DNA of 64,000 nucleotides from Nitrosarchaeum sp. (GCA_965223865.1 OZ245020.1:1568001-1632000), one strand, 5' to 3'. Shown: positions 3,299-27,103, counted from the first letter of the stretch. Translations and numbers: made by a program. The notes: generated by a model not told the origin, from the letters alone.

Positions 3299-3976
3299 CT
3301 AAATTCTTATTATTCCATTTACAATCATAAATTGAATACTTTGTGCAAATTCTTCATCTGATGTGAGTCCTTGGGCCCACCAACCTGCATTCTTCCTTAA
3401 CCATTCAGGTATCTGTGTTTCAGATTCAACTTTCTCTGAATTTGTATTCTGTGGAATGATTATTACTCTAATCTTGATCAGATGTTCTAATCCTTTTGCA
3501 AAATCAGAATCAGATATTTGATTGGAAGACCACCATCCTGCATTGATTTTAATCCATTCTGGGATTTTTAACGAATCCTCTTGGTCATCCTTATTTTGTT
3601 GTGTTGAAACAACAATTACCTTTCCTATCATCCAGGGATGAATTGTACAAAAATAGTCAAAGGTTCCAGATTCCATAAAAGTAAATGACCAAGATTCGCC
3701 TGGACTATATAAGCCACTATCAAATTTCTGATCCATTGCGCCAGGCTTTCCACTTGTAACTGAATGAGGTTCAGAGTCATTATTTGGCCATGTTATTGTA
3801 TCTCCAACATTAATCTTAATTTCTTCAGGAGAATAACAATTATGGAAAGTCGCACATAATCGATTGTGAGCACCCTGTGGGATATTGACTACATGTTCTG
3901 TTGCATATACAAAACTAGGAGGGATTAAAAATACTAAAAACAGCAGGATTAGAATAACTTTTTTTGAATTATTCAT
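3299..3976 (-). CDS. plastocyanin/azurin-like blue copper protein with thaumarchaeal C-terminal IPEW repeats
   Basis: Type-1 Cu ligands H(SVTSG)...C-x2-H-x2-M (FCTIHPWM); IPEWIKINAGWW and IPEWLRKNAGWW. Confidence 0.92.
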   Translation of the reverse strand: MNNSKKVILILLFLVFLIPPSFVYATEHVVNIPQGAHNRLCATFHNCYSPEEIKINVGDTITWPNNDSEPHSVTSGKPGAMDQKFDSGLYSPGESWSFTFMESGTFDYFCTIHPWMIGKVIVVSTQQNKDDQEDSLKIPEWIKINAGWWSSNQISDSDFAKGLEHLIKIRVIIIPQNTNSEKVESETQIPEWLRKNAGWWAQGLTSDEEFAQSIQFMIVNGIIRI

Positions 3977-10988: not shown

Positions 10989-11147
10989 CTATCTGCTCTT
11001 CAAACCATCTCTTAAGACAGAATTTACCACGTGAGAAAAACTGACGTTTCTTTTTGTTTTTCTTATCATGTTGGCCTGTCTCTCTCTTAGCGCATCTTCA
11101 ATTTCTCTGTCAATCATAACCGAGATTCTACTTGTTTCTGGTTTCAT
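10989..11147 (-). CDS. 52-aa ribbon-helix-helix protein
   Basis: Own translation MKPETSRISVMIDREIEDALRERQANMIRKTKRNVSFSHVVNSVLRDGLKSR. Confidence 0.72.
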   Translation of the reverse strand: MKPETSRISVMIDREIEDALRERQANMIRKTKRNVSFSHVVNSVLRDGLKSR

Positions 11148-11176: not shown

Positions 11177-11713
11177 CTAGTAGTCTAGCACTACATCAGC
11201 TTCGGCCAGAACTCTCTGAAGTTTTGGCATGTACGGATGTGGATCAATCTCTACTCCGCGGAGAAGATTATCGACATCAAAGCTTCCAATACAGTGCTCA
11301 CATGCAATCACTCGTCCACCATCGTTGATGAATGCCTTTAGAGCCTCATACTGTACAGTCAATGCAGTTGGTCTGTCATCGTCTGCAATTCGAACTCCGT
11401 CAACATCCAATAGTACTACAACATGTTTCCCGGCATCCTGAAATGCCTTGGCATGTTGAATTCCCATCATGGCCGAATGTCTTTCATGCTGACTATCAGG
11501 ATCTCCACTGGTTATGTGAACAACATATAACCTGTCCATACCTGTGCTTAATCCTGCATGTAGTCTTTCTATCTCAAGGCCTTCTTGAGGCGCACCCTCT
11601 GGATAGACATAAGCATCTGCATCAAAACCTCCACTTTGAACAGAAATTGCCGCAACGATCAAAAGAGTTGCAAGGGCAGATCCCGTAATGGAATATTTCA
11701 GAATTGATTTCAT
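11177..11713 (-). CDS. exported DsrE/DsrF-family protein
   Basis: VVVLLDVDGV, GGRVIACEHC; signal peptide. Confidence 0.85.
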   Translation of the reverse strand: MKSILKYSITGSALATLLIVAAISVQSGGFDADAYVYPEGAPQEGLEIERLHAGLSTGMDRLYVVHITSGDPDSQHERHSAMMGIQHAKAFQDAGKHVVVLLDVDGVRIADDDRPTALTVQYEALKAFINDGGRVIACEHCIGSFDVDNLLRGVEIDPHPYMPKLQRVLAEADVVLDY

Positions 11714-11774
11714 TGATTGTATAATGGAACAATATTAAAAAACAAAATTGGGAGGTTCATCGAATGTACCAATA

Positions 11775-12272
11775 TTACAATGCCAAAAAAATATCCTCAG
11801 AATGTTCTTTTTTATTATTGAGTAGTTTTGAAAACTCTTTTCTAAATGTGTATTTTAGCAATCCCATATTTTTTATCTCATAGTATGTTTTTTTGTCATT
11901 TGTTATTTTTTCTATTATGTCATTTTTTATTAATTCCGAAATATTCCACGATGTTGTCGCAGGACTCTTGCCAATTTTGGATACAATCTCCCTGAAAGTG
12001 GGAGTTCCTTTCACTATTATTGTAAAGAGGATTTTCTTTTTCGTAGGTTTTCTCAAGTTTCTTATAATATCAAATTCTTCTTCATCTATATCTAGAGAAA
12101 AATATCGGTGATACCTTGTGTATTTTTTTGATTTTATCTTTCCTTCTTTTTCTAATTTTCGCAGGTAATGCTCAGTTACACCCTTTTCTAGTCCAGTTTC
12201 ATTAATTATACCACAGAAATGAATCCCAGGATTATCCTTGATGGTCTCCAGTATGAGATCTGATCTTTTCAA
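11775..12272 (-). CDS. tandem winged-helix transcription regulator
   Basis: I.DNPGIHF..I......G...HYL.KLE and second HTH FREI....KSPATTSWNISEL. Confidence 0.88.
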   Translation of the reverse strand: MKRSDLILETIKDNPGIHFCGIINETGLEKGVTEHYLRKLEKEGKIKSKKYTRYHRYFSLDIDEEEFDIIRNLRKPTKKKILFTIIVKGTPTFREIVSKIGKSPATTSWNISELIKNDIIEKITNDKKTYYEIKNMGLLKYTFRKEFSKLLNNKKEHSEDIFLAL

Positions 12273-12300
12273 CCTAGGTTTTGTTGATGTTTATCAATAT

Positions 12301-12429
12301 CTAAGATTTTTGATGTATCTTGTATCTGGTTCCATCTTCATGGATGCATTCATCTCCGATGTGATGATGATTTTCATGTCCTTTGTGTTTGTGATGTTCT
12401 TGGTCTTCACAGTTGCAGGTTTTTTCCAA
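12301..12429 (-). CDS. 42-aa His/Cys-rich peptide
   Basis: TTG start, MEKTCNCEDQEHHKHKGHENHHHIGDECIHEDGTRYKIHQKS; paralog at 26073; operator 2 and TATA upstream. Confidence 0.75.
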   Translation of the reverse strand: MEKTCNCEDQEHHKHKGHENHHHIGDECIHEDGTRYKIHQKS

Positions 12430-12535
12430 TGTTTGATGGCATCAAACTTGCTATTAATAATAAAAATATGATTTCCAATATTGAAATCAAAAATATTAAA
12501 AATTGATTTGATTCCAACCAACTACATTCAAAAAA

Positions 12536-13249
12536 CTAGCCATAGATAGTATCTCTAATCTGTTCTGTCTCTTTTTGTGTTTTTTTGATTCTTTTTTCAG
12601 CCTTGGCAGACTCATTTTTTATTATTTTAAGATTGCACGGTAGTTTTGGTATGAACATTCCCATTGTAAGGCATAATTTTGCTCCAGATTCAAAATCTGG
12701 ACTATTCTTTGTTTTAGGAAAAAATAGCAAAACTATGACCCCTTGATTAGAAAATCTTCCTTGGTTTAACAACATACCTGGAATTCCGGGTATTGTAAGA
12801 TCCAAGGACATCTCAATTCCAAGAGATTTTATCTCGTTTCTTGCATTCTCAGTACTGCCAATTGCAGCTATGTCTTTAGTGAGTTTTGGATTCATTACCA
12901 TTCCTACAGTGCTGATTATCTTCTTGCAATGATGTTTTTTTGCATATTCTAACATTACCTTTGCAATTGCTCGTGAAAATGATTCGGGTAAAGACAGATG
13001 TGACAAAAATACTGCAACTTTGAGTTTTTCATTTACAAAGATGTTTACTGGATAATATGGAATACCACCTCTTACTAGACTTATTGGAGGAAAATCTACT
13101 GAGTTTAAAAAACCTGCAAGTTTAAAATCGGATGTACTTGTCATTGATTCTGCAGCAATACTGCCTGCAAGACCCACATTTGGAAAACCATCTATTACGT
13201 AGCCCCCTTCCAGATCACAATCCAGAAGTTCTGTTATTTCGATGATCAT
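12536..13249 (-). CDS. PAC2 family (proteasome assembly chaperone-like) protein
   Basis: IDGFPNVGLAGSIAA, GIPGMLL, PDFESGA. Confidence 0.88.
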   Translation of the reverse strand: MIIEITELLDCDLEGGYVIDGFPNVGLAGSIAAESMTSTSDFKLAGFLNSVDFPPISLVRGGIPYYPVNIFVNEKLKVAVFLSHLSLPESFSRAIAKVMLEYAKKHHCKKIISTVGMVMNPKLTKDIAAIGSTENARNEIKSLGIEMSLDLTIPGIPGMLLNQGRFSNQGVIVLLFFPKTKNSPDFESGAKLCLTMGMFIPKLPCNLKIIKNESAKAEKRIKKTQKETEQIRDTIYG

Positions 13250-13526
13250 GAGATCAGTTATGCATTATAATCTAAAAGAAAGCAAGAACAATATCAAAGG
13301 TGAAAATGAACAAGACAAGATACATGAAAAATTATCTCAAATTTATTATTTGCATGCATGTATTTTCTGTAACAAATTATAGATAACCCACAATATTGTT
13401 TTGGGATGATTGCAAAACTGAAATGACTTGTGACACAATTAAGGTTGGTTTTCAGTCACAATTATAATTGCAATTCAACACATTGCAAACGGACCTATTA
13501 TATCAAATTCTGCCAATATCTACTGT

Positions 13527-13696
13527 ATGACCATAATCTGTAAGGGATATGCATTGAATCAAAGGGAATTCCTATGAGTAACAGTAAAAGATATCAAAAT
13601 GGGTAAAGACGATGTACATTTTGTAGTATATTCTTAGTAGCAGGTATTAGATGCCCTTGTTGTAAAGCAATATTGCGAACAAAACCACGCACTTGA
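13527..13696 (+). pseudogene. degraded copy of the 5444-5617 Cys-rich gene
   Basis: Collinear with 5444-5617 but with a 1-nt deletion after codon ~7 and a CAA>TAA change. Confidence 0.82.
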
Positions 13697-13788
13697 AATT
13701 TAATTTCAATTAACCAAGCACGCTACCGGATTATGTTTTATAATTATAAAATTAATTTGAAGAAAAATTAAAATCAGATGTTGAACAT

Positions 13789-14118
13789 TTATTGGTTGAA
13801 AATTAATTCTACTTCCATCTGACCTTTTTTGAATTGGCTTTGAATTCCTTTTATTTTACTCTTGTACAAGAAAAATTTCTTTCCATCCTCATTTATCATG
13901 CCAGACGTTTGGAGCAGTTTATTGTCATGAAGTGTTTGTATTCGTCTATATACAGTGCTGATTGGAATGTGAGTTTCTGTAGCTATTTCCATTGCTGATT
14001 TTGGCACATTCAAAATTGTTTTTATGATGGAGCGACAATATTTGTCTGAAACAACTGAGAGTATTGCATCTTTTGTAATGTCTTCTTCTATTTTGAATGC
14101 AGATTGTAACTCTTGCAT
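13789..14118 (-). CDS. ArsR-like winged-helix regulator
   Basis: VSDKYCRSII...PKSAMEIA....IPISTVYRRIQTL; start MQELQ fits promoter spacing. Confidence 0.88.
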   Translation of the reverse strand: MQELQSAFKIEEDITKDAILSVVSDKYCRSIIKTILNVPKSAMEIATETHIPISTVYRRIQTLHDNKLLQTSGMINEDGKKFFLYKSKIKGIQSQFKKGQMEVELIFNQ

Positions 14119-14311
14119 GATTATACTTAACAGGCTATGATAAATTATGGATACATATTTTCTGAATTTGGTTTTCAACAATGGAAATCGTAGTGGGAAA
14201 TTGTCTATTTCTTTTGATGCCGTCCATAGATTTGAGGATCCAGATGTATTTATTGAGAATTGAATATGAAAATGAGTTTAATTTTTGAGAATATTTTATA
14301 CTTTTTTTCTA

Positions 14312-14893
14312 TTAATCATTAGCATATCCTCTAAGTTGATCATACAATGAAATCTGTTCTAAGCTTAAAACATCTGCTGTCTTAAGGTGAGCCTGAAGAT
14401 GGATATTTCTTAGTTGCCACTTTATCTCGCTGCTATTTTTTAGAAGTTCACTTAACTCCTCAGAAGTTATAGATTTGTCCACAAACTTTCCATCAATTTC
14501 TCTTTCAATTTCAATAAATTGCTGGCCAAGTGGCACTGCTTGTTGAGACATTTCCTGATAGAATAATTCAATTTGTTCTTTCTGTTCAGGGGTCAAATTA
14601 AGTTCTTCAGACAAATCTAAAACGTGTCTTGGTCCTGGATAGCTATTCAATTCAGCTGGTAAAGCCATTCCTACTCCATGACCTTTTGGAATTCCTGTCA
14701 ATTCTCTAGCAGTCAATGACTTTATTTCTCTTGTTTGCTCTCCTGCCCAAGGAGAATGAGTCATTGGTGTACTAGACATTTCTTCCTGATGGCCTTTTGG
14801 GTCTTCAGTTTCAAACATGATATATCCTACACCGATTCCAACAAGAAATACTCCAACTACGATTGGAATCCATAAAACCTGATTAAACGACAT
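14312..14893 (-). CDS. Spy/CpxP/ZraP-like helical protein, membrane anchored
   Basis: AELNSYPGPRHVLDL, LTPEQ and LSLEQ...YDQLRGY (LTxxQ motifs). Confidence 0.82.
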   Translation of the reverse strand: MSFNQVLWIPIVVGVFLVGIGVGYIMFETEDPKGHQEEMSSTPMTHSPWAGEQTREIKSLTARELTGIPKGHGVGMALPAELNSYPGPRHVLDLSEELNLTPEQKEQIELFYQEMSQQAVPLGQQFIEIEREIDGKFVDKSITSEELSELLKNSSEIKWQLRNIHLQAHLKTADVLSLEQISLYDQLRGYAND

Positions 14894-14914
14894 TTTATTC
14901 CCGATGTTTCAGAT

Positions 14915-15382
14915 TCAAGAATGCGAATACCCACGTAAAATGTCGTATTGCCTGATTTGTTCAGGATCTAGGATTTTTTTTGTAGCTAAATGACATCGTA
15001 AATGTGTAAAACGAAGTTTTCCCCATAATTCTCCTGATTTTTTCAGATACTCTTGCAATTGTTGCTCAGTCATCTCTTCTTTTGCAAATCCATCATCAAT
15101 CATTTTTTCCGTTTTGATAAACTCTTCACCTAATTCTTTTGCATCTTTTTCCATCTCATCGTAGATTTCTTGAGTCTGTTTTCTTTGCTCATTTGTTATG
15201 CCAAGTTGTTCACCTAGTTCTAAGACATGAATAGGTCCAGGATGGTGGTTTAACTCAGCAAGAATTGCCATTCCACCAAAAATTCCACCTCTTCCTCTTC
15301 GAATGATTTGAATATCTTTTTCAGAAAGGGATTTGATTTCTCTAGTTTCAAGACCAGAATATTTTGATTTTGTTTCACTCAT
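14915..15382 (-). CDS. Spy/CpxP/ZraP-like paralog without signal peptide
   Basis: AELNHHPGPIHVLEL, ITNEQ, LDPEQ...YDILRGY. Confidence 0.82.
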   Translation of the reverse strand: MSETKSKYSGLETREIKSLSEKDIQIIRRGRGGIFGGMAILAELNHHPGPIHVLELGEQLGITNEQRKQTQEIYDEMEKDAKELGEEFIKTEKMIDDGFAKEEMTEQQLQEYLKKSGELWGKLRFTHLRCHLATKKILDPEQIRQYDILRGYSHS

Positions 15383-15446
15383 GATATACTATTGTTACAA
15401 TTATGAAATTAAAACATCAGTACAATTTCCAAAGTTGGTTTTTGTT

Positions 15447-16325
15447 TCATAACAATAATGCAGCTTTACTTAGAAGGAAAATACCTGATGAAAATATTAT
15501 TAGAGAAAATACAAGTATGAGTTTTCTTGTGCTTATTTTATCAACTAATTTCACACCTAAAATTGAACCTGGAATAGAACCAATCAGTAACAGAAGAAGC
15601 GATGTGAATGAAATAGTATCCATCGAGTAGTGTAAAGTAGTTCCGACAAATGCCGCTACGATTCCAAATAATGCCATGGTTCCAGCAGCAATTTTAGGAG
15701 AATGTAATGTCTTTACCAAAACGGGAAGCATCATAGAAACTGCACCTAGTCCAGAAATTTGATAAATCAGGCTAATCGGGCTGCCTGAGAAAAGCCATGT
15801 AATGATGTTTTTCTTTGATGTGATTTCAGATTTTTGTGATGAATGATTTTCTTTAGTAATAAAATCAAGATGTTCAAAATCCTTTTTCAAAACATGAAAT
15901 TTTATCAGGTACAGAGTCAATCCCATGAAGATCATTCCCAGAAGTAGAAAGATCATATTGTCTAACACTTGAGAACCTTGAGTTGTTTCAACATACTCCC
16001 AGATAATTTTTCCTAAAAACATTGATGGAGGGACTGGAATTATCATTACTGCCAATGCTTTCCAATTTACATTGTGGTTTTTTGCATGAATCGTTGCAGC
16101 TGAAATTCTAGTAAATGCAAGAAATGCAATACTTGTTCCAACAACAGCCTGTGCAGGCATTCCAAGAATAATGAGAACTGGAAAAAGCATAGGAGCCCCA
16201 ATTCCAGATATTCCAATTGCAATGCCAATGCTAAAACCCACTATTATCAGGATAATTGCAATGATTGGCTCTGAAATTGCAGATACAAATTCTCCATTAA
16301 AAAAAAGCGTAAAATTTTCAATCAT
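15447..16325 (-). CDS. sulfite exporter TauE/SafE family protein
   Basis: GISGIG....P, AVVGTS, AAGT, GSIPGSILG; multi-TM. Confidence 0.88.
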   Translation of the reverse strand: MIENFTLFFNGEFVSAISEPIIAIILIIVGFSIGIAIGISGIGAPMLFPVLIILGMPAQAVVGTSIAFLAFTRISAATIHAKNHNVNWKALAVMIIPVPPSMFLGKIIWEYVETTQGSQVLDNMIFLLLGMIFMGLTLYLIKFHVLKKDFEHLDFITKENHSSQKSEITSKKNIITWLFSGSPISLIYQISGLGAVSMMLPVLVKTLHSPKIAAGTMALFGIVAAFVGTTLHYSMDTISFTSLLLLLIGSIPGSILGVKLVDKISTRKLILVFSLIIFSSGIFLLSKAALLL

Positions 16326-17773
16326 CTAAAAATCGCAGGGACAAGAGTAGTCATAAGTATCGTCAAAACTACCACCATTATCAGAGTAAGAGGTAACCCC
16401 ACTTTGGCTAGTTGTTTTGTAGTTACATACCCACTCCCTAAAACAACTATGTTTGGAGGAGTACCCACAGGCAGAATAAATCCATAGCTAGTTGCAATGG
16501 CAACTGGAATCATGAATAGTAGTGGGTCCATATTTAATGATGTAGACAATGCAGCAGCTACAGGAATCAAAAGTGCCGCAGTTGCAGTATTGACTACAAA
16601 TTGAGTCGTAATCATAGCAACTACCACCAACACCAGAACTATGACAAAGGGTGGGAAATTTTCAAGAAATTCCAATTGGGTTGCCATCCATTGGTCAACA
16701 CCTGTAGATGTAAATCCAGCTGCTAAAGCAAGACCGCCACCTATCAGTAACAAAACGCCCCATGGAATTTTGATTCCTTCATCCTTTGATAAGATCCTTC
16801 CATTTTCTTTTGAGGGTAAAACAAAAAATGACATTGCAGCAATTATTGCAATTACCGCATCATCTATCATTGGAAGGTACGGCTTCCACAAAATATGAGT
16901 AATCCAAGCAGTTGCAGTAGCTCCAAATACTGCTAGGACTAATTTTTGATCACGTGTAATACTACCTAACTCTTTTAATTTTTTTACAATGACTTCTTTT
17001 TCATCAATAATGTTTGTTGATTTTAGTTTAAAACCAACATTAGTCAAATACCATCCCGCAATAATTAATGAAATTATTGTAACAGGAATTCCAATCATCA
17101 TCCATGATGAAAAATTAATGTCAATCTCAAACATTTTGTCAGCTACAGAAGAACAGATGATGTTTGGTGGAGTTCCAACCAATGTTGCAATTCCTCCTAT
17201 ACTTGCAGCAAATGCAATCGAAATCATCAGGGAACTTCCAAATTTTCCTCGTTCCTCTGGTTGTTTTACCTGGCTAATCACGGCCAAGGCAATCGGCAAT
17301 ATCATCAAAGTTGTTGCAGTATTACAAATCCATGCACTAATTGATGCAGTAACTACCATGAATGCAAAAATAATTAGTTTGGGACTGCCATTGGGAATAA
17401 TCTTTAAAGTTGTCAGAGCAAATCGTTCATGAAGATTGGTTTTCTGAATTGCTTTAGCTAAAATAAAACCTCCCAAAAGCAGGAAAACTAACCGATGAGC
17501 ATAATTTGTGGCAGTATCTGAAAGAGGAGTTACCTGCATTACTGGAAAAAGCACTATGGGCAAAAGTGCTGCAACATAAAGTGGAACTGCCTCTGTGACC
17601 CACCAGGTTGCCATCCAAATGGCAGTTCCCAGGACAATTTGACCTTCAAAAGAAAGTCCCTCTATTGGCAAAAAAATGGTAATTAGGAATAATATGGGTC
17701 CTAAAATCAAACCAATTCTGCTGATCTGATTTCCTGTTTTACCAAGAATTTCAATCGGCCTTTTTTTAAGCAA
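16322..17773 (-). CDS. SLC13/DASS anion:sodium symporter
   Basis: WWVTEAVP, CNTAT, VGTPPN, NTATA, PVGTPPN. Confidence 0.94.
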   Translation of the reverse strand: MLKKRPIEILGKTGNQISRIGLILGPILFLITIFLPIEGLSFEGQIVLGTAIWMATWWVTEAVPLYVAALLPIVLFPVMQVTPLSDTATNYAHRLVFLLLGGFILAKAIQKTNLHERFALTTLKIIPNGSPKLIIFAFMVVTASISAWICNTATTLMILPIALAVISQVKQPEERGKFGSSLMISIAFAASIGGIATLVGTPPNIICSSVADKMFEIDINFSSWMMIGIPVTIISLIIAGWYLTNVGFKLKSTNIIDEKEVIVKKLKELGSITRDQKLVLAVFGATATAWITHILWKPYLPMIDDAVIAIIAAMSFFVLPSKENGRILSKDEGIKIPWGVLLLIGGGLALAAGFTSTGVDQWMATQLEFLENFPPFVIVLVLVVVAMITTQFVVNTATAALLIPVAAALSTSLNMDPLLFMIPVAIATSYGFILPVGTPPNIVVLGSGYVTTKQLAKVGLPLTLIMVVVLTILMTTLVPAIFR

Positions 17774-20219
17774 TTTTTGCCTCCCTGACCTTGCTTGGAG
17801 GAGTCCATCTCTTTAGGAGTAGAGAGCTAGATACAACAGAGACAGAACTTGCAGCCATTGCTAATCCTGCAAGTGCAGGATAGAGCAATCCAATTCCGGC
17901 TACAGGAATCAAAATTGTATTGTAAACAAATGCATAAAACAAATTGTATTTTATTTTGCTGATTGTTTTTTTGCTGATTTCTATTGCAGAAACCACATCT
18001 TTTAGCTCTTCTCTTACAAGAATAATCATTCCAGCTTCCAAAGCAATGTCTGTACCACCTCCAATTGCAATTCCAACATCAGATTGAGTAAGTGCTGGAG
18101 CATCATTGATACCATCCCCAACCATTGCAACAATTTTTCCTTGATCCTGAATTTTTTTTACTTCATCAACTTTTTCTGAGGGAATAACGTTTGCCACAAT
18201 TTTTTCAATACCCAAGTCCTTCCCAATTGTCTTTGCAGTTTTTTCATTATCGCCTGTTAGCATTACAACTTCAATTCCTAACTTTTTTAACAAAGAAACA
18301 GTTTCTTTGGAGTCTCTTTTTGGCATATCTAAAAATGAGATAATACCTATCGGTTTGTTATCCAATGCGATTATTGAAACAGTCTTTCCTTGTTCTTGCA
18401 GTTTGATAACATCTTGCATTGCATTTTTGATTTCAATTTTTTCTTTTTCAAACAACTTTGGATTTCCAACAACAATTGTTTTATTTTCAAAAGTAGCTCT
18501 TACCCCACCTCCTGGAATGGATTCAAATGTGTCAGGATCTTTTACATCAATTTTGTTTTTTATTGCTTGTTTGACTACTGATTTTGATAGAGGATGCTCA
18601 GAATTTTTTTCGGCAATAGCTGCAAATCGTAAAACATCAGATTTTTCAATTGGCACATCTTGTTTCACAGTAAGAATATCTGAAATCTTTGGTTTTCCTT
18701 CTGTCAGAGTTCCTGTTTTATCAAAAACAATTGTCTGAACTTTGCCCAACAATTCAAGTCCTTGACCACCCTTGAAAATTACTCCATTTTGGGCAGCTTT
18801 TCCCATCCCCACCATGACTGCTGTAGGGGTTGCCAACCCCAATGCACATGGACATGCTACCACAAGGATAGCCACAGTAGGAATAATTGCAGCCAATATC
18901 AAGCCAGGAGCTCCAAAGAAATACCATGCAAGAAAAGTAATTATTGCCACGCCTATTACAATGAATGAAAAATATCCTGCAATTTTGTCTACCATCTTTT
19001 GCATTGGAGGTTTTCGGCCCATTGCGTCTTCAACCAATCCAACAACTTGAGAAAGGAACGTGTCACTTCCAACTTTGAGTGTCTTTAACAATAACGAACC
19101 TTCTTTGTTGATAGTTCCCCCAATGACTTTGTCATTGATCTTTTTAGTTACGGGCAAGGACTCGCCAGTTACCATGGATTCATCCACTGCTGAAATTCCT
19201 TCAATTACAATAGAATCTACGGGGATTTTTTCTCCAGGCTTAACAATTACAATATCTCCTTGCTGTAATAGTTCAATGGGAATATCTTCTTCGTTTTCTC
19301 CTCTTTTCACTCTAGCAACCTTTGGTTGAAGCTCTAACATTTTTCGGATAACTGAGGATGCCTTTCCTTTGGTTTTGTTTTCCAGATATTTTCCCAATAA
19401 AATGAATGTGATCACCATGACTGCTGCCATGTAATGAATATTTTCCCATACTGGAATAGGAAATGTGTTGACTGCGCTGAAAACATAAGCAGTTGTTGTT
19501 CCAAGAACAATCAGGGTATCCATGTTTGCTGATTTCATTTTGGCCATCTTGAAGGCACCGACATAAAATCGCCAGCCCATTCCAATCTGAACTACACTTG
19601 CGCATGCAAAAGAAAAGTAGGCTCCCTCAATTGTTCCTGCGTAAGGAAATCCAAGATACATTCTGGAGAGCTCACCTAAGAGTACAACAGGAATTGAAAA
19701 AATCACCCCAATAATAAACAGCCGTTTGATTTTTTTTGCTTCAATCTCTTCAGCAGAAGCTGAGAGATCTTCACTGAGAATTTCAAAACCTGAATCTGTG
19801 ACATATTTTCGAATGTCTGATAATGAAAGCAAGGCGGGATTGTATTCAACACGAATTTGCCCTGTTCCAAAATTTACGGATGAGAATCGTACACCTTCTT
19901 TTTTTGCCAACAAAGTTTCTAACTTTTGAGCATCACTGGCATCAGATATTCCTGATACTACCAACATCAATTTTTCATAAACTACTTTGTATCCTGCATC
20001 AGTAACTGCTTTTTCAAGTATGTCTAGGTTAACTTTAGATGGATCATATTGCATGACGGCTTTTTCAGCACCTAAATTAACATCACATTTTTCTACGCCT
20101 GGAATATTTGAAACATGTTTTTGGATTGCAGAAACACACCCTGCACAGGTCATTCCACCAATTTTTACTACTGCCCTTTTTTGAGACTCTAATTTTGATT
20201 TATTCATTTTATCCACCAT
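17766..20219 (-). CDS. copA: copper-translocating P1B-type ATPase
   Basis: GMTCAGC, TGES, CPC, DKTGT, SEHP, GDGIND, YN, MAASS. Confidence 0.97.
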   Translation of the reverse strand: MVDKMNKSKLESQKRAVVKIGGMTCAGCVSAIQKHVSNIPGVEKCDVNLGAEKAVMQYDPSKVNLDILEKAVTDAGYKVVYEKLMLVVSGISDASDAQKLETLLAKKEGVRFSSVNFGTGQIRVEYNPALLSLSDIRKYVTDSGFEILSEDLSASAEEIEAKKIKRLFIIGVIFSIPVVLLGELSRMYLGFPYAGTIEGAYFSFACASVVQIGMGWRFYVGAFKMAKMKSANMDTLIVLGTTTAYVFSAVNTFPIPVWENIHYMAAVMVITFILLGKYLENKTKGKASSVIRKMLELQPKVARVKRGENEEDIPIELLQQGDIVIVKPGEKIPVDSIVIEGISAVDESMVTGESLPVTKKINDKVIGGTINKEGSLLLKTLKVGSDTFLSQVVGLVEDAMGRKPPMQKMVDKIAGYFSFIVIGVAIITFLAWYFFGAPGLILAAIIPTVAILVVACPCALGLATPTAVMVGMGKAAQNGVIFKGGQGLELLGKVQTIVFDKTGTLTEGKPKISDILTVKQDVPIEKSDVLRFAAIAEKNSEHPLSKSVVKQAIKNKIDVKDPDTFESIPGGGVRATFENKTIVVGNPKLFEKEKIEIKNAMQDVIKLQEQGKTVSIIALDNKPIGIISFLDMPKRDSKETVSLLKKLGIEVVMLTGDNEKTAKTIGKDLGIEKIVANVIPSEKVDEVKKIQDQGKIVAMVGDGINDAPALTQSDVGIAIGGGTDIALEAGMIILVREELKDVVSAIEISKKTISKIKYNLFYAFVYNTILIPVAGIGLLYPALAGLAMAASSVSVVSSSLLLKRWTPPSKVREAKIA

Positions 20220-20291
20220 TGATTCTTCGCAATTCGTGTTGTTTTGGAAGTCAAAAAGAAAAAAAGAATTTACGCATATACACTTCTGAAT

Positions 20292-20588
20292 TTAGCTTGA
20301 ACCAGCAACAGAATTGAAGAATTTAGGTCCTTCAGGATCTCTCTCCATGTAACTTCTGGCTTGCTCATGCATTTTACCATGAGTTTCACTAGAATGTAGT
20401 TTGTCAAACTGTTCTTTGCTGTCCCATTCGGCTACAATTGTATATGTGCCCTCTTCGGATTCCAAAAGCCTTCTGGATACAAATCCATCATTTTTTGAAA
20501 TCTCCTTGTTTGATTCATTAAACCAATTCTTAAAATCAGCAATAGAATCTTTCTTTATTGGTACGTTGCTATGAATTGCTACGAACAT
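20292..20588 (-). CDS. antibiotic biosynthesis monooxygenase (ABM/IsdG-like) family protein
   Basis: GFVSRRLL....Y....EWDSKE.F....SETH. Confidence 0.85.
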   Translation of the reverse strand: MFVAIHSNVPIKKDSIADFKNWFNESNKEISKNDGFVSRRLLESEEGTYTIVAEWDSKEQFDKLHSSETHGKMHEQARSYMERDPEGPKFFNSVAGSS

Positions 20589-20757
20589 GTTGTAATTGTC
20601 ACATTTCCATAATTAAGGAAGTATCACAATTTCCAATGTTGGTTGTAGTGTTGGTTCATTCGATAAAAGTACCAAAAAGCTAAAGAAGGATTTGTGAGAC
20701 AGCAAGGTCTTAGCTATTTTTTGCTCTAACTTTTTGTTTAATTTTAAAATAATATCG

Positions 20758-22272
20758 TCATTTTATAATCATATCCAAAAAGATTGTTTTTACTACAAGT
20801 CCGTTTGATGCGCTAATTGCAAGTGTATGATTGCTTGATGACATGTTATCATTGGTCAGTGTCAAGTTTATGATCTTTGAATTTTCTATTTCGTTTAGAT
20901 CAATAGTATCCGAAGGAAATGATGATGTCATATTTACCAGCTTCCCTGAAATTCCTATCGAACTTGATGTAGTTAAGTGAATTTTGGAATGGTCACCATA
21001 GCTCCATAAATTTTCAAATTCTGTATTTTTTGATAATGTGATTTTTACCGTCTTTTTGGATTTGTCAAGTGGAGATTCAAACTCTATTATGTTAGTATCT
21101 GAGCTAATCTCAAAGGGAAGCAGCAAACTTTTATCCACAACCCCAATCTTTCCAAGATTCCACTCAGAAAACCAAAGGTTATCGTGATTGGTAGGATCCG
21201 TATCTATGTTAAGAATCTGAACCAAAAAACCATCTTTGGGCCTACTTTGAATCTCGTATTCTGTTAATGTGTTATCTGTCAAATTGAAAAAAGCCACTCT
21301 GTTTCCAGTGTGTTCATTGAACCATATCCCTTCATTATCGCCGCTTGCTCTTAGCCAAAAAGGCAGTGATGTTCCAACCTGTGATAGTGGAGAGGTGGGA
21401 TATCTCTTCCATTCTTTTGTACTCATATCATATTCAGTCAGAAAACTGGTTCCATGCTCAGTAGTCCATAATGTGTCATTTAGAATCAGAATATCTGTGG
21501 GGGATGCTGGAAAAAGACTTTCATGGTCGGGGATTTCAAGGGATTTCTTTAGATCTAAAACATCACCAAATTCATCTCTAATCACTAAAAATTTTACAAT
21601 CTTGTTATCTGTTATTTGAGAGACCCATACAGCATCTTCTGATTTATCTAAAACTATTCCACTGGGTCCTGTATTTTCTCCAACATCAAATTCTGAAATC
21701 TCAAATATGTCTAGATTAGGATTTTTTTGTACAACTCCAACTTTGTTACTTTGCAAAGCAGTGTACCAGATTTCCCCTGTATTAAGATCGGACTTCATCT
21801 GAAAGGGAGCAACACTTGTGTAATTGAAAGATGTAAATTTTTTTGTTTCAGGATTGAATTGCAGTAGGTGATTAGCACCTGTTCTTGAAAACCAAATTGT
21901 TCCATCATTATTTTGTAGTATTGACCATGTCATCTAGTTATTGTCATTTTGATCAATATTGTTTTGATTGATCAAATATGATGCAATTATCTTCTCACTT
22001 GCAGGATCAAAATGCACCAATCGAGGAAGATTTGTGTCTGTAATCCAAATTGTACCTTTTTCATCTATCTCAATTGCATTGGGAAATACATTTTCTTGTA
22101 ACTGATATTCTTTTACATATGAGATTTTTTGCTTTGGCTCATTGAAATGTGGCACATTTATTGGAATAGATTCAATATCATCCGATTCTTGTGATGTTAA
22201 TTCATCAGCAATAAAGTATGAAACAATTGCAATAATGCCAATCATTATTGCAATAGCCTGAACTCTTCTCAT
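20758..22272 (-). pseudogene. Vgb/NHL-like beta-propeller membrane protein interrupted by an in-frame TAG
   Basis: ORFs 21934-22272 and 20758-21933 are in the same frame, separated only by TAG; IW(F/I)T/S and WFNEH propeller repeats run across the junction. Confidence 0.78.
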
Positions 22273-22419
22273 TTAGTATGCCTCATTAGATATTCAATCA
22301 TGACTAATTTTGATTTTTATGACCTGCAAGCAAAAGATACAAACATCATAGTAAACATTCCAGATTTTTCGTTCACATCCACAATTACAACAACATTTCT
22401 TGTCTTGCAAGGCTAGCTT

Positions 22420-22938
22420 TTACTCATTGTATTCAAAAAATTCTTCACATTTGTAACAGTATAATCTATGTGTACCATCAGTCAGTTCTGTCTTGACAAG
22501 ATCAACTTCAGTATGAAGAGGACAGGTTCCCTTGATTTGTTCATTTGTTGAGAATCTAAAAAAACGCAAAATATCGGTTGCTGTAATGATGCCGGAAATC
22601 TCTCCTGCATCAAAAACTGGAATCTTTCTTATCTTTTTTTCAATCATGATATCAGATACTTGCAAAACTGACTCTTCAGGTGAAACATGAATAACAGGTG
22701 AAGTCATTACTTCAGAAATTTTTGTAGATGGAGAAATTTCATTGGAAATTACTTTGACTGCAAAATCTCTTTCAGTCATAATTCCAACAGGTTTGCTATT
22801 CTTCATTATTACTACTGAACCAACTCCATCATCTTCCATTATTTTTGCTGCTTGTTGTATGGTGTGTTCTGAATGAACCATCTCCACATCTTTTGTCATT
22901 AAATTTTTCACTGGAATTTTTGAAGGATCATTTCTCAA
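22420..22938 (-). CDS. CBS-pair protein with C-terminal zinc knuckle
   Basis: GIMTERDF, GIITATDI; CPLH...CYKC. Confidence 0.9.
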   Translation of the reverse strand: MRNDPSKIPVKNLMTKDVEMVHSEHTIQQAAKIMEDDGVGSVVIMKNSKPVGIMTERDFAVKVISNEISPSTKISEVMTSPVIHVSPEESVLQVSDIMIEKKIRKIPVFDAGEISGIITATDILRFFRFSTNEQIKGTCPLHTEVDLVKTELTDGTHRLYCYKCEEFFEYNE

Positions 22939-23015
22939 GATAAACAAGATATACTTCAAATCAATTTAACATACAAGATAATTTTCAAACTTGAAAGAAA
23001 CTATATGCTGTACAA

Positions 23016-23321
23016 TTACTCTTGAAAATAAAAAGTATCGTATTTTTCATGTAATTTTCTTACTTGTTTTTTACAAATAATCCAGAATTGTTTGTATTCT
23101 CCGTCAGTCATTGAACGTCCGTAACTGGAATAAAACCACTTTACAAACTCATCTTCTATTTTGCCAAACACAAATCCCAGATGAAAGTCCTCTGAGATTT
23201 TTATTCCAAATTGTCTTTTTGGTTGTAAATCGTCCCATCTTGAAGACATTCCTTCAAAGGAGTACTGAGAATTTTCAAGTAGGTTTTCTAGATATTTTAT
23301 TGCAGTATCTTCAAGTTTCAT
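23016..23321 (-). CDS. hypothetical protein
   Basis: 101-aa ORF directly downstream of the propeller gene. Confidence 0.7.
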   Translation of the reverse strand: MKLEDTAIKYLENLLENSQYSFEGMSSRWDDLQPKRQFGIKISEDFHLGFVFGKIEDEFVKWFYSSYGRSMTDGEYKQFWIICKKQVRKLHEKYDTFYFQE

Positions 23322-23331
23322 GCTTATGATA

Positions 23332-24912
23332 TTATTCTAGAATTGTTCCCCAACCACGCTCAGCAAGCTTCTTTGCAGTGGCAGGAAGGGTGCATGCAAT
23401 CTTGCCCTTTATGCTCTCAATCCAAACTTTACCTTCACAGATAATGTCTTTTGACATCATTTCAGGCTCTGTAGTCATTGTGCTTTGTAATGATTCACCT
23501 ATCTCTTGTGCAGATATGGTTCCAGAAACTGTCATGGTTTGTGCATTTTTTGGTATTTGAAGCGAGATCATACGTGTCTTTTCGCCCAGTTTGAATTCCT
23601 CATGAGTGATAGAATTTCCATCTAATCTTACATCAAACTTTGCGTCATCGCCATCACTTTGTTTTGCATCCAAGACATTTCGTGGAATTTGTATGGCAAC
23701 TTTTCCTCCATCTTCTGTTTCTAGATTTAGCATAAGCATGTTTGATTGAGTGTTAACAAATGCATCAGATGCTGTGACATCCTGTCCATGAAAGTGAATC
23801 AAATCCAAAAAGACAGCCGGGGTCTCGAGTGTAACTACAGGCAATGAAATAGAAATTGATTCAGGTCCCAATATCAAAATCTCATCAGTTGCCTTTAAGG
23901 ATGCATAAAACTTGTGTGTGTTTGGATTTACTTCAAGATCCCATGATTTAGAGTCAACATCCCAACTTGAGACAATCTCATTTGTGTTGCCATCTATTTT
24001 TACAATCTTGTTTTGTGTAAGATAAGAAGCAAAAATTTGGTGTTCTGCCGTATCCACCGCAATTGCTTGTGCCCTATCACCTAGAGAAATAGTATCAACA
24101 ACTTCTTTTTCTAAAATGTTGATAACTGTAATACAGTCGCAGCCTCGATTAGTTACATAAGCTAGATGCCATAATGGATCAATATCTAAACCCCAAGGAG
24201 CTCCCAAAACTTGAATAGTTTCAGTAATTTGATGTACTGGAGTAGAAGAGTGTTGTGTACGCGGCACTTGCTCTAAAAATGAAATTTCATTTCCTGCAAG
24301 ACTTGCAACGATTACGGTATTAGTTATAGGGTCTGCACGTACAGTAAATGGATGTCTTGGCACAGGCACAGTTTCAATTACTTCATCGTTATTTCCGTCT
24401 ATGACGTAAATCAAATGTGAGTTGTAATCGGCCACGTAAAGTAGTTGGTTTGTTGGGTTGTAATCAATCGACCAACCACCTGTTAGAAAGTGCAAATCTG
24501 ATCTATGTCCATAAGGTTGGTTTGATGTGGTCTGAATTGTAATCTCAGATTCTGGCAAAGGAATGGTCTTTATGAGTAGTTTTGTGCTTAATGCGTAGAC
24601 GTCAATGCCTCCACTCTCAAATGCAGCAACGTAAATCTTATTTTTATCAGGAACTGGCTTGATGTCCATTATTCCTGATGAGGACGTGGTGATAAAACCA
24701 GCATCTTTGTTATTTTTTATATCAATTATTGATACTCGTGGATACTCAAAACTTGACACATAGAGGGAATCATCTACTAGTGCCATGTTCATTGGAGTAC
24801 CTGTAACAGGGATTTTTTCTAAGACATGATGAGCAAAAGCACTTTCTTCTTGATTAGCATAAACTGAGAATGTAATTACAAAAATTAAGATACTTACTAG
24901 AAGAATTTTCAT
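23332..24912 (-). CDS. secreted YVTN/YncE-type beta-propeller
   Basis: LYVS, IYVA, LYVAD, AYVTN repeats; signal peptide from MKILL; QIPRNVLDA thaumarchaeal domain. Confidence 0.88.
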   Translation of the reverse strand: MKILLVSILIFVITFSVYANQEESAFAHHVLEKIPVTGTPMNMALVDDSLYVSSFEYPRVSIIDIKNNKDAGFITTSSSGIMDIKPVPDKNKIYVAAFESGGIDVYALSTKLLIKTIPLPESEITIQTTSNQPYGHRSDLHFLTGGWSIDYNPTNQLLYVADYNSHLIYVIDGNNDEVIETVPVPRHPFTVRADPITNTVIVASLAGNEISFLEQVPRTQHSSTPVHQITETIQVLGAPWGLDIDPLWHLAYVTNRGCDCITVINILEKEVVDTISLGDRAQAIAVDTAEHQIFASYLTQNKIVKIDGNTNEIVSSWDVDSKSWDLEVNPNTHKFYASLKATDEILILGPESISISLPVVTLETPAVFLDLIHFHGQDVTASDAFVNTQSNMLMLNLETEDGGKVAIQIPRNVLDAKQSDGDDAKFDVRLDGNSITHEEFKLGEKTRMISLQIPKNAQTMTVSGTISAQEIGESLQSTMTTEPEMMSKDIICEGKVWIESIKGKIACTLPATAKKLAERGWGTILE

Positions 24913-25246
24913 GATTTTTGTAAAAAAATACAAAATAAAAGAGAGCATCACAATTTCCAATTTTGGGTTTTAGAAGATATTCGGATTTGAAAACTCTGAA
25001 AATAAAAAAACAGATCCGTTATATCTAGAATCAAGCATATTATTTTGATGATAATACACTGTGAATGTGGAATTTGTAGACACCAAGTTGAACCTGAATG
25101 CATCGAAAAAGAATGTCAGTGTTGTTCTAATTTCCACTTGCGTTCTGGATAACACGCTGAAATTTTAATTATAATCAGAACTTGTAGTTTTACAAGTTTT
25201 ACTAAAAAGAATTATTTCATCTGTTATCCACTAGATCTGAAATTTC

Positions 25247-25597
25247 TTAACTTCGGATAATCGGACTTGCTCTACCAGATATTTTCACAATATCAGAATC
25301 AGATGCAATTTTAGCTACTTGTTCTAAGTTCAACCTACTCATTGCAAGAAGAGCAGTTTCAGCCGTGGATTCTGCTTCCAATGCAAACTTGTCTCTTAAT
25401 TCATTGAGTTTCCTATTCATATCCAAACCTGATTTGTATTCTATGACAAGAGTCACTTGAGGTTCTTTGACGTATTCCGAAGCCAGTTTTCTTTCCAGAT
25501 ACATTACTCTATGTACAAAATTAGGATCTACATTTGGTAATTTGCTTTGCAGGTTTGACAAGTACTGATCGTAAATAGATTCTATTTCTTGACTCAT
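25247..25597 (-). CDS. hypothetical protein
   Basis: 116-aa ORF with TATA ~24 nt upstream. Confidence 0.7.
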   Translation of the reverse strand: MSQEIESIYDQYLSNLQSKLPNVDPNFVHRVMYLERKLASEYVKEPQVTLVIEYKSGLDMNRKLNELRDKFALEAESTAETALLAMSRLNLEQVAKIASDSDIVKISGRASPIIRS

Positions 25598-25678
25598 GAC
25601 ATATCAACCATTTCGATAATTATAAAACAAATTGATGAATATCACATATGATTTTCAAATTACAATAAATGCTATGGT

Positions 25679-26086
25679 TTAGAACCAAAAAGTATTTCCA
25701 TTTTTCATTACTGACAATTGCGAAGAACTTTGATATTCTGATGCACCATGCCAGTGAATAGTGCCAGAAGGAATCAACACTGCATCATTTTCTTCTAATT
25801 CAATTGATTTTTCTATTCTGAGATTTGCCTTTGTATTGTCACTGATGGGGTCAATTCCAGAATATGCAACAAGATGACCTTTTCCTTTAATGGCAACAAT
25901 AATCTGATCAGAGTCATGAAGGTGGAGTTTTGATCTTGAACCCTTCTCAAAATCAATAAAGTACATCTTTAATTCTGATGTGGATAGTTTTTCAGATAAT
26001 CTGTTTAGTCTAATTTTGCCTAGCTTGTGACCCGTTTTATCAATTTCTAACTTTTGATTGATTTTGATTTTCTTAATGCTGTTCAT
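25679..26086 (-). CDS. cupin domain protein
   Basis: HLHDSDQ...G.G and IPSGTIHWHGA; start MNSIK overlaps the stop of the upstream peptide gene. Confidence 0.88.
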   Translation of the reverse strand: MNSIKKIKINQKLEIDKTGHKLGKIRLNRLSEKLSTSELKMYFIDFEKGSRSKLHLHDSDQIIVAIKGKGHLVAYSGIDPISDNTKANLRIEKSIELEENDAVLIPSGTIHWHGASEYQSSSQLSVMKNGNTFWF

Positions 26087-26195
26087 GAATTGGGTGTCTT
26101 GTTCCATCTGGATGAATGCATTCGCCATTCTCATGTTTATGGGTACTCTTATCTCCCTTGCAATGCTCATCTGAGCAGTTACATTCAGTTGCCAT
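26073..26195 (-). CDS. 40-aa His/Cys-rich peptide
   Basis: MATECNCSDEHCKGDKSTHKHENGECIHPDGTRHPIHEQH; paralog of 12301; operator 2 and TATA upstream. Confidence 0.8.
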   Translation of the reverse strand: MATECNCSDEHCKGDKSTHKHENGECIHPDGTRHPIHEQH

Positions 26196-26306
26196 GTGTG
26201 CCATGAAGCTAATGTATTATTAAAAAAGATTTATGATTTCCACCAATGATTTCCAAAAAAGGATTTTGTGTCTCTGTTCTAAATATGGTATTTTACAATT
26301 TTCTAC

Positions 26307-26564
26307 ATGATTCGAGGAGCCCCAAAATTTGTAATGATTGCGTTTTTTGCAATAGGAGTGCTGTTCATTGGATTCTCATTATGGGCCTTGTATCTGACTG
26401 ATATTCCACAAGAACAATTCCTAGAAGATCCGAGATTTGAAGAGGAGTACGTCAAATATTATCAATGGTTGACAATATTTGGGATCGTATTGGTAGCAAT
26501 AGGAGGAGTTTTAGCAGTTCTAGGACGCAAAATGATAGGCAATAAACGATTTAAATTGCAATAA
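26307..26564 (+). CDS. small 2-TM membrane protein
   Basis: Two hydrophobic helices. Confidence 0.75.
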   Translation: MIRGAPKFVMIAFFAIGVLFIGFSLWALYLTDIPQEQFLEDPRFEEEYVKYYQWLTIFGIVLVAIGGVLAVLGRKMIGNKRFKLQ

Positions 26565-26699
26565 ATTATTTTATTACCATTTGTTTAATGCATTTCTTTT
26601 TCAGAAAATCTTTAGTAAAATCATAGGAATAGACAGTTGTGAGGCCTCATTGCGAAAAAATCTGGTGGCAGATGAGGTCAAAAACAAATTCTAACCATA

Positions 26700-26966
26700 T
26701 TATTTTTTATTTTTCTCGATGTCATCAACAAGCAACTCATCTCCAACATAGATGTACGCAAAAAGCTCCTGGTTTCCAGTTGTCTCTATTGTCATCCATC
26801 CTGTGGGACCAAGTCCCTCCAGAACATACATTGTCTCTACCTTGGATGTGTTTCTGTCAATTACCTTGACCCTTGTCCTCTGTATGATTATCTCTTCAGA
26901 ATGTGAAAAGATCCGGATCGGCTCCTGTTTGCCGTCCTTGTTAATTCTGACTAGTTGAATCTTCAG
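26700..26966 (-). CDS. 88-aa hypothetical protein, probable CTG start
   Basis: Open frame LKIQLVRINKDGKQEPIRIF...DDIEKNKK; AAGGTG upstream. Confidence 0.55.
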   Translation of the reverse strand: MKIQLVRINKDGKQEPIRIFSHSEEIIIQRTRVKVIDRNTSKVETMYVLEGLGPTGWMTIETTGNQELFAYIYVGDELLVDDIEKNKK

Positions 26967-27103
26967 TTAGCAGCACCTTCATTGAATGCAAAGTTAATGC
27001 CATCTTGTTTGAGACAAACCAAATTCAGATTATCCAAACCACTCATTGTTGTGGTATACTATTAGTATACTATTGCATATATACTTTTAGTATACCGGGA
27101 TTT

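Follow-up and report, generated by a model that had tools for sequence, protein, structure and literature searches.

Ammonia-oxidising archaea are drivers of nitrification in the sea and in soil and rely strongly on copper proteins, and to our knowledge the regulation of their stress response is almost unknown. Two very short reading frames rich in histidine and cysteine, found in a Nitrosarchaeum sp. genome, raised the questions of whether they are genes, under which control they stand and what their products might do. Both lie in a contiguous stretch of 64,000 nucleotides (C1:1568001-1632000 of the 2.01-Mb genome), here called the window. The original prediction, made from this stretch, described an unannotated and unrecognised family of two paralogs, metallothionein-like or chaperone-like in kind, hidden under longer reading frames and preceded in both cases by the same operator ('operator 2') and by a TATA box at suitable spacing.

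Two mini-protein genes and the family to which they belong

The first gene, termed the type C copy, occupies positions 12301..12429 of the minus strand, starts with TTG, ends with a stop codon at 12301-12303 and encodes 42 aa. The second, termed the type B copy, occupies 26073..26195 of the minus strand, starts with ATG and encodes 40 aa. Both peptides had been quoted exactly as read, provided that the minus strand is used, the plus strand giving unrelated text; translation bore out the counts of nine His and three Cys for type C and of seven His and four Cys for type B. The two are identical at 17 of 41 positions (41%; BLASTP E=2e-08 for the pair). TTG or GTG start codons are used by the type C copies in this genome. 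For type B the open reading frame offers a second in-frame ATG at 26204; orthologs in two other genomes of the genus start with the same Met as 26195, and the position of the TATA-like A/T-rich box read from the sequence at 26215..26227 (minus strand; putative function) favours the ATG at 26195 over that at 26204.

Four longer reading frames in other frames do cover the two genes. On type C these are 12238-12471 (plus strand, 77 aa) and 12294-12521 (minus strand, 75 aa), and on type B 26054-26206 (plus strand, 50 aa) and 25679-26170 (minus strand, 163 aa), the last of which encodes a cupin. The cupin call up to 26170 is probably an over-extension across the type B peptide gene: the Pfam Cupin_1 match (7.6e-09) begins at residue 55 and the NCBIfam match at residue 51 (model position 19), with which a start at Met29 (26086) fits, and the cupin gene 3' of type B would then span 25679..26086 (minus strand). 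At two loci with type B orthologs (L014, L032) the cupin is not adjacent.

The number of paralogs had been set too low, since the genome holds four copies and public collections hold 52 clusters at 50% identity. Besides the two in the window, a twin of type C with 88% identity to the copy at 12301-12429 (C1:1335747-1335869) and a type A paralog (C1:58763-58882) were located by genome search. When homologs with a conserved frame were searched for in genomes of the same taxonomic family, 38 matches without a single internal stop were obtained in 26 of 151 genomes, representing 8 of the 27 genera sampled. Pairwise differences at codon positions 1/2/3 amounted to 440/369/1162 among 12 type A orthologs from several genera, to 20/8/54 for type B and to 4/1/11 between the two type C copies of the window's genome. 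As the differences fall mainly at third codon positions, they indicate selection on the protein in this frame. The four paralogs, the intact homologous frames and the third-position bias together place the similarity of the two peptides beyond chance.

The distribution of the family is narrow. In a phylum-wide sample 5 of 401 genomes were matched, all from the same taxonomic family, and the 344 genomes of 60 other families gave no match. Pattern scans additionally led to two MAGs, a GC-rich one from Thaumarchaeota in which the member is intact and one from Nitrososphaeraceae in which it is broken, and a locus search with a narrower family alignment returned two genome loci and three metagenome loci. 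A word-indexed search of public proteins yielded 55 proteins at E<=0.01, and an exhaustive HMM search of 1.84 billion representatives yielded the 52 clusters at E<=0.001. Three much longer proteins in these clusters, one of them named S46 peptidase, look like clustering artefacts. Most members are 38-68 aa long, and metagenomic P0128 (160 aa) consists of three tandem Cys/His modules joined by Ala/Gly-rich linkers. The description as unannotated holds in so far as the exact window sequences are absent from a collection of 15 billion proteins; close homologs from Nitrosopumilaceae MAGs are deposited, with 'hypothetical protein' as the only informative name. Curated libraries do not recognise the family: neither window peptide matched a Pfam or NCBIfam family at E<=1, and a PDB sequence search with the family profile returned only a chance match of 12 residues to carbonic anhydrase (E 0.9). 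The ESM Atlas gave no usable match, and the family was not found in literature on His-rich small proteins or metallothionein in ammonia-oxidising archaea. An Rfam search over 11500-27000 returned only a sub-threshold snoRNA-like match at 13748-13824. Judged by the sequences, both reading frames are real genes of a conserved His/Cys family, which is uncharacterised and limited to ammonia-oxidising archaea.

An alignment of 71 sequences defined the motif CxC...[C/H]...H...C-x-H-x-D-G-x-x-H-x-I, in which seven Cys/His positions are at least 97% conserved (C5 in 70 sequences, C7 in 70, H21 in 69, C26 in 71, H28 in 70 and H34 in 70; position 12 holds Cys in 48 and His in 21). Conservation extends to non-ligand residues, namely G31 in 67 sequences, Asp (54) or Asn (14) at position 30 and Ile in 56. 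The average composition is 13.4% His and 8.7% Cys, and types A to C are acidic, with a net charge of -3 to -7 without His by manual count. The label metallothionein-like did not hold, since Cys accounts for just 7-10% of residues, thiolate-cluster motifs are missing, and Asp, Gly, Ile and the spacing are fixed as in a folded finger. A chaperone function, the alternative named in the original prediction, may still apply. As read from the alignment, the module is of fixed length, fold-like and equipped with seven ligands, and not a Cys-rich sponge; the natural reading of the seven conserved Cys/His positions is that the mini-proteins probably bind metal. AlphaFold2 models of modest confidence (mean pLDDT 62.2 and 70.5) consist of a beta-hairpin and a third strand. 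With these low-confidence models, Foldseek found nothing in the PDB at E<=0.001 and the wide VIA-align search gave a Dof zinc finger as best match at Z 2.1; these results do not point to a new fold.

Type A, the most conserved copy of the family, is chromosomal and lies directly 3' of the leucyl aminopeptidase gene. Its stop codon overlaps the start codon of a gene for a 62-aa helical protein of no known family (C1:58882-59067; L004:1614-1802; relatives L152-L168). This gene was found in 17 of the 151 genomes, in four genera, all of which also hold type A. An adjoining peptide match is present in 13 of the 17, two of these matches being devoid of the ligands, and the peptide is intact in 11; in the remaining six it is deleted (one genome), open and without ligands (two) or decayed (three). 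In the genome with the deletion, the 62-aa gene comes directly behind the operator-bearing promoter. Loss or decay in 6 of 17 genomes, combined with conservation of the intact copies, indicates that the peptide is under selection where present but dispensable. A complex prediction for the type A peptide with the 62-aa protein yielded no verdict (score 0.00). In two genomes of one genus (L155/G107 and L157/G054) the type A frame is open and of full length and retains the C-terminal residues; missing from it are one of the two CxC cysteines, the central Cys and the Gly.

A candidate stress operator and its putative regulon

Both window genes do have the predicted operator and TATA box: a palindrome ends 37-38 nt ahead of the start codon, and an A/T-rich TATA-like box lies between the two. 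The consensus of the operator is ATTATCA-N4-TGAAAAT, according to a second matrix built from 38 sites. The type C site (12468..12489, minus strand) scores 18.8 bits with this matrix, ends 38 nt before the TTG and is separated from the start codon by the TATA-like A/T-rich box at 12452..12467 (minus strand; putative function). The type B site (26233..26254, minus strand) scores 14.7 bits, reads as two direct 9-base repeats and has its end 37 nt ahead of the ATG at 26195. A third site in the window (22978..22999, minus strand; 14.1 bits) has an ORF start 39 nt downstream, that of 22420-22959, whose product contains a CBS domain at 4.5e-26. Across type A, B and C promoters, all 16 of the 16 carry an operator ending 35-38 nt before the start codon and then an A/T-rich box.

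A first matrix derived from the type A, B and C sites picked hsp20 genes, one thermosome gene and CBS-domain genes in the same genome. Among the hsp20 loci scored, 12 of 17 have the operator 37-39 nt before the ATG, an 18th locus without a start codon being left unscored. The thermosome genes were divided by identity to the site-bearing copy (29 loci; one locus from an unpublished genome, L078, left out). The clade at least 75% identical has the operator at 9 of 9 loci, with 6.5-17.1 bits and 35-53 nt upstream, whereas the clade at 60-67% identity has it at none of 20 loci, no score exceeding 4.6 bits.

The second matrix comprises the best site of each upstream window and omits the hsp20 loci L049, L058, L059 and L064 (low score or other spacing) and L065 (no start). 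Its sites are sharply positioned, 22 of the 38 ending 37 nt and 32 of the 38 ending 35-40 nt before the start. A scan of the genome gave 95 sites of at least 14 bits, of which 26 have an ORF start 34-41 nt downstream, compared with 0-3 for 20 column-permuted control matrices; seven of the 26 had served for training. All four peptide genes are among them, as are three hsp20 genes, five CBS-domain genes (one of them in the window), a UspA gene with a second UspA-like ORF behind it, an MgtC-like gene and a number of small unknowns; the CBS, UspA and MgtC-like labels outside the window are sequence readings only. The plain operator pattern with three mismatches was matched 34 times in the window with 29.4 expected, which is not above chance. 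As the plain pattern stays at chance level and the position-aware scan is informative, the signal resides in position and conservation.

Within the His-rich branch the operator extends to a metagenomic relative (19.7 bits at 39 nt) and, as a weak site at exactly 37 nt, to the GC-rich MAG. In the distant four-Cys subfamilies the score of six members stays under 10 bits, and weak sites at 54-60 nt are present in three.

Several further arrangements were observed during these scans. Housekeeping thermosome promoters of the 60-67% clade (L077, L080, L081, L090 and others) carry another conserved element 60-75 nt upstream, in several genera. At C1:251053-253605 an hsp20 gene stands in divergent arrangement with a second thermosome copy of the stress type, and hsp20-thermosome islands of a similar kind occur in other genera. 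Two small ORFs stand behind strong operator sites at canonical spacing (C1:1472272, 46 aa and very acidic; C1:1538502, 58 aa) and may be further unrecognised small stress proteins.

Because the operator is common to hsp20, thermosome, CBS and UspA genes, it is not metal-specific, and the expected signal is heat or proteotoxic stress; the window copies are thus placed in a putative heat or proteotoxic-stress regulon. No description of this operator was found in the literature searched. The operator-bearing gene classes are those that appear as heat-specific in Nitrosopumilus maritimus SCM1, according to a study of 2026 (PMC12974425). There, the highest growth temperature, 32 °C, was the only one at which HSP20, three UspA and two CBS-domain proteins were detected; a fourth UspA was increased 3.6- to 7-fold and a Cdc48-like ATPase was increased as well. 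In the same study these UspA proteins were absent from cultures inhibited by H2O2, and three of the uspA transcripts showed no significant regulation in response to Cu stress or ammonia starvation (PMC12974425). We infer heat induction of the mini-proteins from the proteome of this other species, by a comparison of gene classes and not of orthologs.

Neighbouring genes, fusions and possible functions

Two genes near type C encode winged-helix proteins. The gene of a two-winged-helix regulator (11775..12272, minus strand; 165 aa; Pfam HTH_24 1.9e-15, HTH_HVO_0163_N 9.3e-12) begins 28 nt 3' of the type C gene, an arrangement found at both type C loci of the genome, and the two genes are probably co-transcribed. 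Among 19 homologous regulator loci in other genomes none has an upstream peptide gene or operator. The regulator was also considered as the self-regulated factor of the operator and rejected, the 300 nt upstream of the 19 homologs containing no site that reaches 10 bits. The second gene (13789-14118, minus strand; 109 aa; paralog at C1:184785-185111) is preceded at a distance of 49 nt by an operator-like site (14168..14189, minus strand) that scores 21.9 bits with the first and 15.3 bits with the second matrix. Its family is present in 59 of 61 genomes (58/60 without the unpublished genome, which is one extra in the tallies, likewise turns 30/30 into 31/31 and carries no conclusion), often within a few kb of hsp20 or an extra thermosome gene and in three genomes less than 1.5 kb from hsp20. 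Its own promoters carry the operator in 4 of 27 cases, two loci without an ATG (L150, L151) having been left out. This 109-aa protein is a candidate heat-shock regulator. A PDB search in this connection did not return Phr.

Most of the window is a conjugative element of ~60 kb, with an integrase (59160-60488), HerA/TraG-type ATPases (32837-36013 and 45070-47025) and a type II methylase/restriction gene (47201-50341). Both peptide genes are located in its ~25-kb metal and stress cargo, together with a P1B-type ATPase with HMA domains (17766-20219), a cupredoxin (3299-3976), a DUF1264 protein, an ArsR-type regulator, a rhodanese, two LTXXQ proteins, TauE and CitMHS-type transporters, and CBS and PAC2 proteins. 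Some cargo genes carry the host stress operator, among them the peptide genes and the CBS gene at 22420-22959. Thaumarchaeal elements are known to carry stress genes such as UspA (PMC6563490). Other neighbours surround the type B orthologs, one of them an integrase fragment, and further family members adjoin UspA genes by sequence reading. The broken homolog of the Nitrososphaeraceae MAG lies between a homolog of the 542-aa protein of the window and a DUF1264-like protein, again as read from the sequence. A RiPP precursor was considered and rejected, no modifying enzyme being conserved beside any subfamily.

Five fusion architectures were found among the 52 clusters. The module follows a small domain of DNA-binding type in P0131 (a label given by sequence reading), a C2H2 finger in P0130 (zf-C2H2_11, 5.5e-4) and a treble-clef-like or zinc-ribbon-like segment with weak matches in P0139; it precedes a zinc-ribbon-like segment in P0101 and L019, and NitrOD1 in P0138 (3.9e-05; 24.0 bits vs a cut-off of 25). 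NitrOD1 has been described as a response-regulator output domain (PMC5847659). A free homolog of the N-terminal half of metagenomic P0131 is encoded in the window, 1.15 kb downstream of type C (10989..11147, minus strand; 52 aa; 43% identity over 44 residues, BLASTP E=2e-13). Neither this protein nor the P0131 half has a Pfam match; in our own reading of its sequence the 52-aa protein would be a ribbon-helix-helix protein. The fusions mark the module as an autonomous unit and hint at a regulatory use of it.

Our preferred reading, held with somewhat less than even confidence, is that the window genes encode heat-inducible metal-binding mini-proteins which capture or relay metal during proteotoxic stress. 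The ~40-residue proteins would fold round a metal by means of the CxC pair, one Cys-or-His, a His, the C-x-H pair and a further His. The His-rich branch, which includes both window copies, would be transcribed from the palindrome promoters that also control hsp20, the extra thermosome, CBS and UspA genes, and as this promoter is common to the hsp20 group the mini-proteins should be made under heat or proteotoxic stress. They might then capture Zn or Cu released by damaged metalloproteins and hold it or pass it on, with the acidic His-rich loop adding binding capacity. Metal binding, the identity of the metal, heat induction and the buffering or relay role are what we infer in this reading. Counting against it are the weak structure models, the dispensability of type A, the operator-poor distant subfamilies, the TTG and GTG starts of type C and the placement of the operator upstream of the TATA-like box. 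The fusions to DNA-binding or output domains would fit better with a regulatory role than with a buffer, and a metal-stabilised regulatory or sensor module is the main rival explanation, of somewhat lower probability. Such a module would be a zinc-finger-like switch docking on regulators or other partners, with free copies acting in trans and fused ones in cis, and loosening of the metal by heat or oxidation would change the activity of the partner. The five fusion architectures, including those of P0131 and NitrOD1 type, point in this direction, as do the type C gene 28 nt before the two-winged-helix regulator at both loci, the overlap of type A with the 62-aa gene start and the peptide match beside that gene in 13 of 17 genomes, and the fixed spacing and conserved non-ligand residues, which suggest a docking surface. 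However, every fusion occurs in just one or two clusters, the winged-helix pairing is absent at the 19 homologous regulator loci elsewhere, no partner is common to all subfamilies, and the acidity of types A to C makes it unlikely that they bind DNA themselves.

The same ligands could instead hold a [2Fe-2S] cluster by three Cys and one His, in which case the proteins would be NEET/CDGSH-like cluster donors or sensors after stress. The invariant set of the His-rich branch comprises exactly three Cys and several His, and the CxC pair and later Cys with nearby Asp-Gly and His superficially recall the CDGSH signature; as the spacing differs, zf-CDGSH (PF09360) has no match at E<=1 in a genome holding four family members, and fold searches with the low-confidence models returned no NEET structure, this explanation is rather improbable. 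About as improbable is strict metal resistance, in which a metallothionein-like sponge carried as cargo would be induced by excess Cu, Zn or Ni. The location of both window copies amid the metal-handling genes of the element and the acidic, His/Cys-rich composition are in keeping with it, but the Cys content is low, the motif is fixed and fold-like, hsp20, thermosome, CBS and UspA genes, and not the ATPase gene, have the same promoter, and type A, the most conserved copy, sits on the chromosome and not on an element; in addition, neither Cu stress nor ammonia starvation is reported to have had a significant effect on three heat-induced UspA transcripts of SCM1 (PMC12974425). It is very improbable that no functional protein is made, the frame being either a leader ORF that tunes the downstream gene by translation or a decaying remnant. 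The overlap between type A and the adjoining start codon, the non-ATG starts of type C and the loss or decay of the peptide in 6 of 17 genomes that keep the 62-aa gene speak for this; against it stand the conservation of the amino-acid sequence across paralogs with different or no downstream genes, the strong third-position bias and the occurrence of the module inside larger proteins and as three tandem copies. A more speculative proposal, which we regard as unlikely, is that the mini-proteins are thermolabile or redox-labile metal switches of an undescribed thaumarchaeal heat-shock circuit. In it, heat would loosen the metal at the seven Cys/His ligands, and the module, once freed or refolded, would act on a transcription regulator, be it the probably co-transcribed winged-helix protein, the small DNA-binding protein known from the fusion or the factor that binds the operator.

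Beyond the choice of function, the data describe a conserved family of metal-ligand mini-proteins that often escape gene callers or disappear under false ORFs, and a candidate heat-shock operator and regulon for Nitrosopumilaceae that match the protein classes seen at high temperature only in N. maritimus. They also provide evidence that cargo of a conjugative element is wired to a host stress promoter. If the switch proposal were true, a protein of 40 residues would be part of temperature sensing in ammonia-oxidising archaea, and conjugative elements would plug cargo into the circuit via the same operator.

Comparison with known systems

The C(P)XCG zinc-finger micro-proteins of Haloferax volcanii, for example HVO_0758, are similar in kind: they too are reported to be free-standing archaeal proteins shorter than 70 residues that are built around Cys/His metal ligands, come in many paralogs and have roles that are for the most part unknown (PMC10716476, PMC11241148). 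Unlike them, the mini-protein family has CxC, C-x-H and His ligands at seven positions instead of four, occurs only in ammonia-oxidising archaea and is tied to a heat-type operator. The C(P)XCG motif is present in none of the displayed sequences of the 20- and 53-sequence family alignments, and no library searched revealed a sequence relation between the two groups.

With the prokaryotic metallothioneins SmtA and BmtA and with Hpn of Helicobacter the mini-proteins share small size, His/Cys richness, a plausible buffering function and proximity to metal-export genes. Prokaryotic metallothioneins are defined by a very high Cys content with clustered CxC and CxxC motifs that form thiolate clusters, whereas Cys accounts here for 3 of 42 and 4 of 40 residues with one CxC only. 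The mini-proteins further differ from metallothioneins and Hpn in that, at 7-10% Cys, they lack long His runs and any Pfam match and have conserved spacing and non-ligand residues. CDGSH/NEET domains are likewise ~40 residues long and combine a CxC pair with a later Cys that has Asp-Gly and His close by; from the three invariant Cys and the three invariant His of the 71 mini-protein sequences, three Cys and one His would be available to a putative cluster. The spacing of the ligand groups differs, the mini-proteins carry additional invariant His residues, and PF09360 does not match.

NikR consists of a small DNA-binding domain followed by a metal-binding domain. In P0131, likewise, the Cys/His module follows a small putative DNA-binding domain, the two corresponding parts being encoded by separate genes 1.15 kb apart in the window; unlike NikR, to which it has no sequence relation, P0131 owes the DNA-binding label of its N-terminal half to sequence reading. 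Phr of Pyrococcus and HSR1 of Archaeoglobus stand for archaeal heat-shock regulons in which hsp20 and chaperone promoters have in common a palindromic operator that relatives retain. Here, too, one palindrome recurs at hsp20 and further chaperone promoters and is retained in relatives. It differs in sequence from the Phr and HSR1 operators, lies upstream of the TATA-like box and occurs in Nitrosopumilaceae, and its gene set additionally includes CBS, UspA and mini-protein genes.
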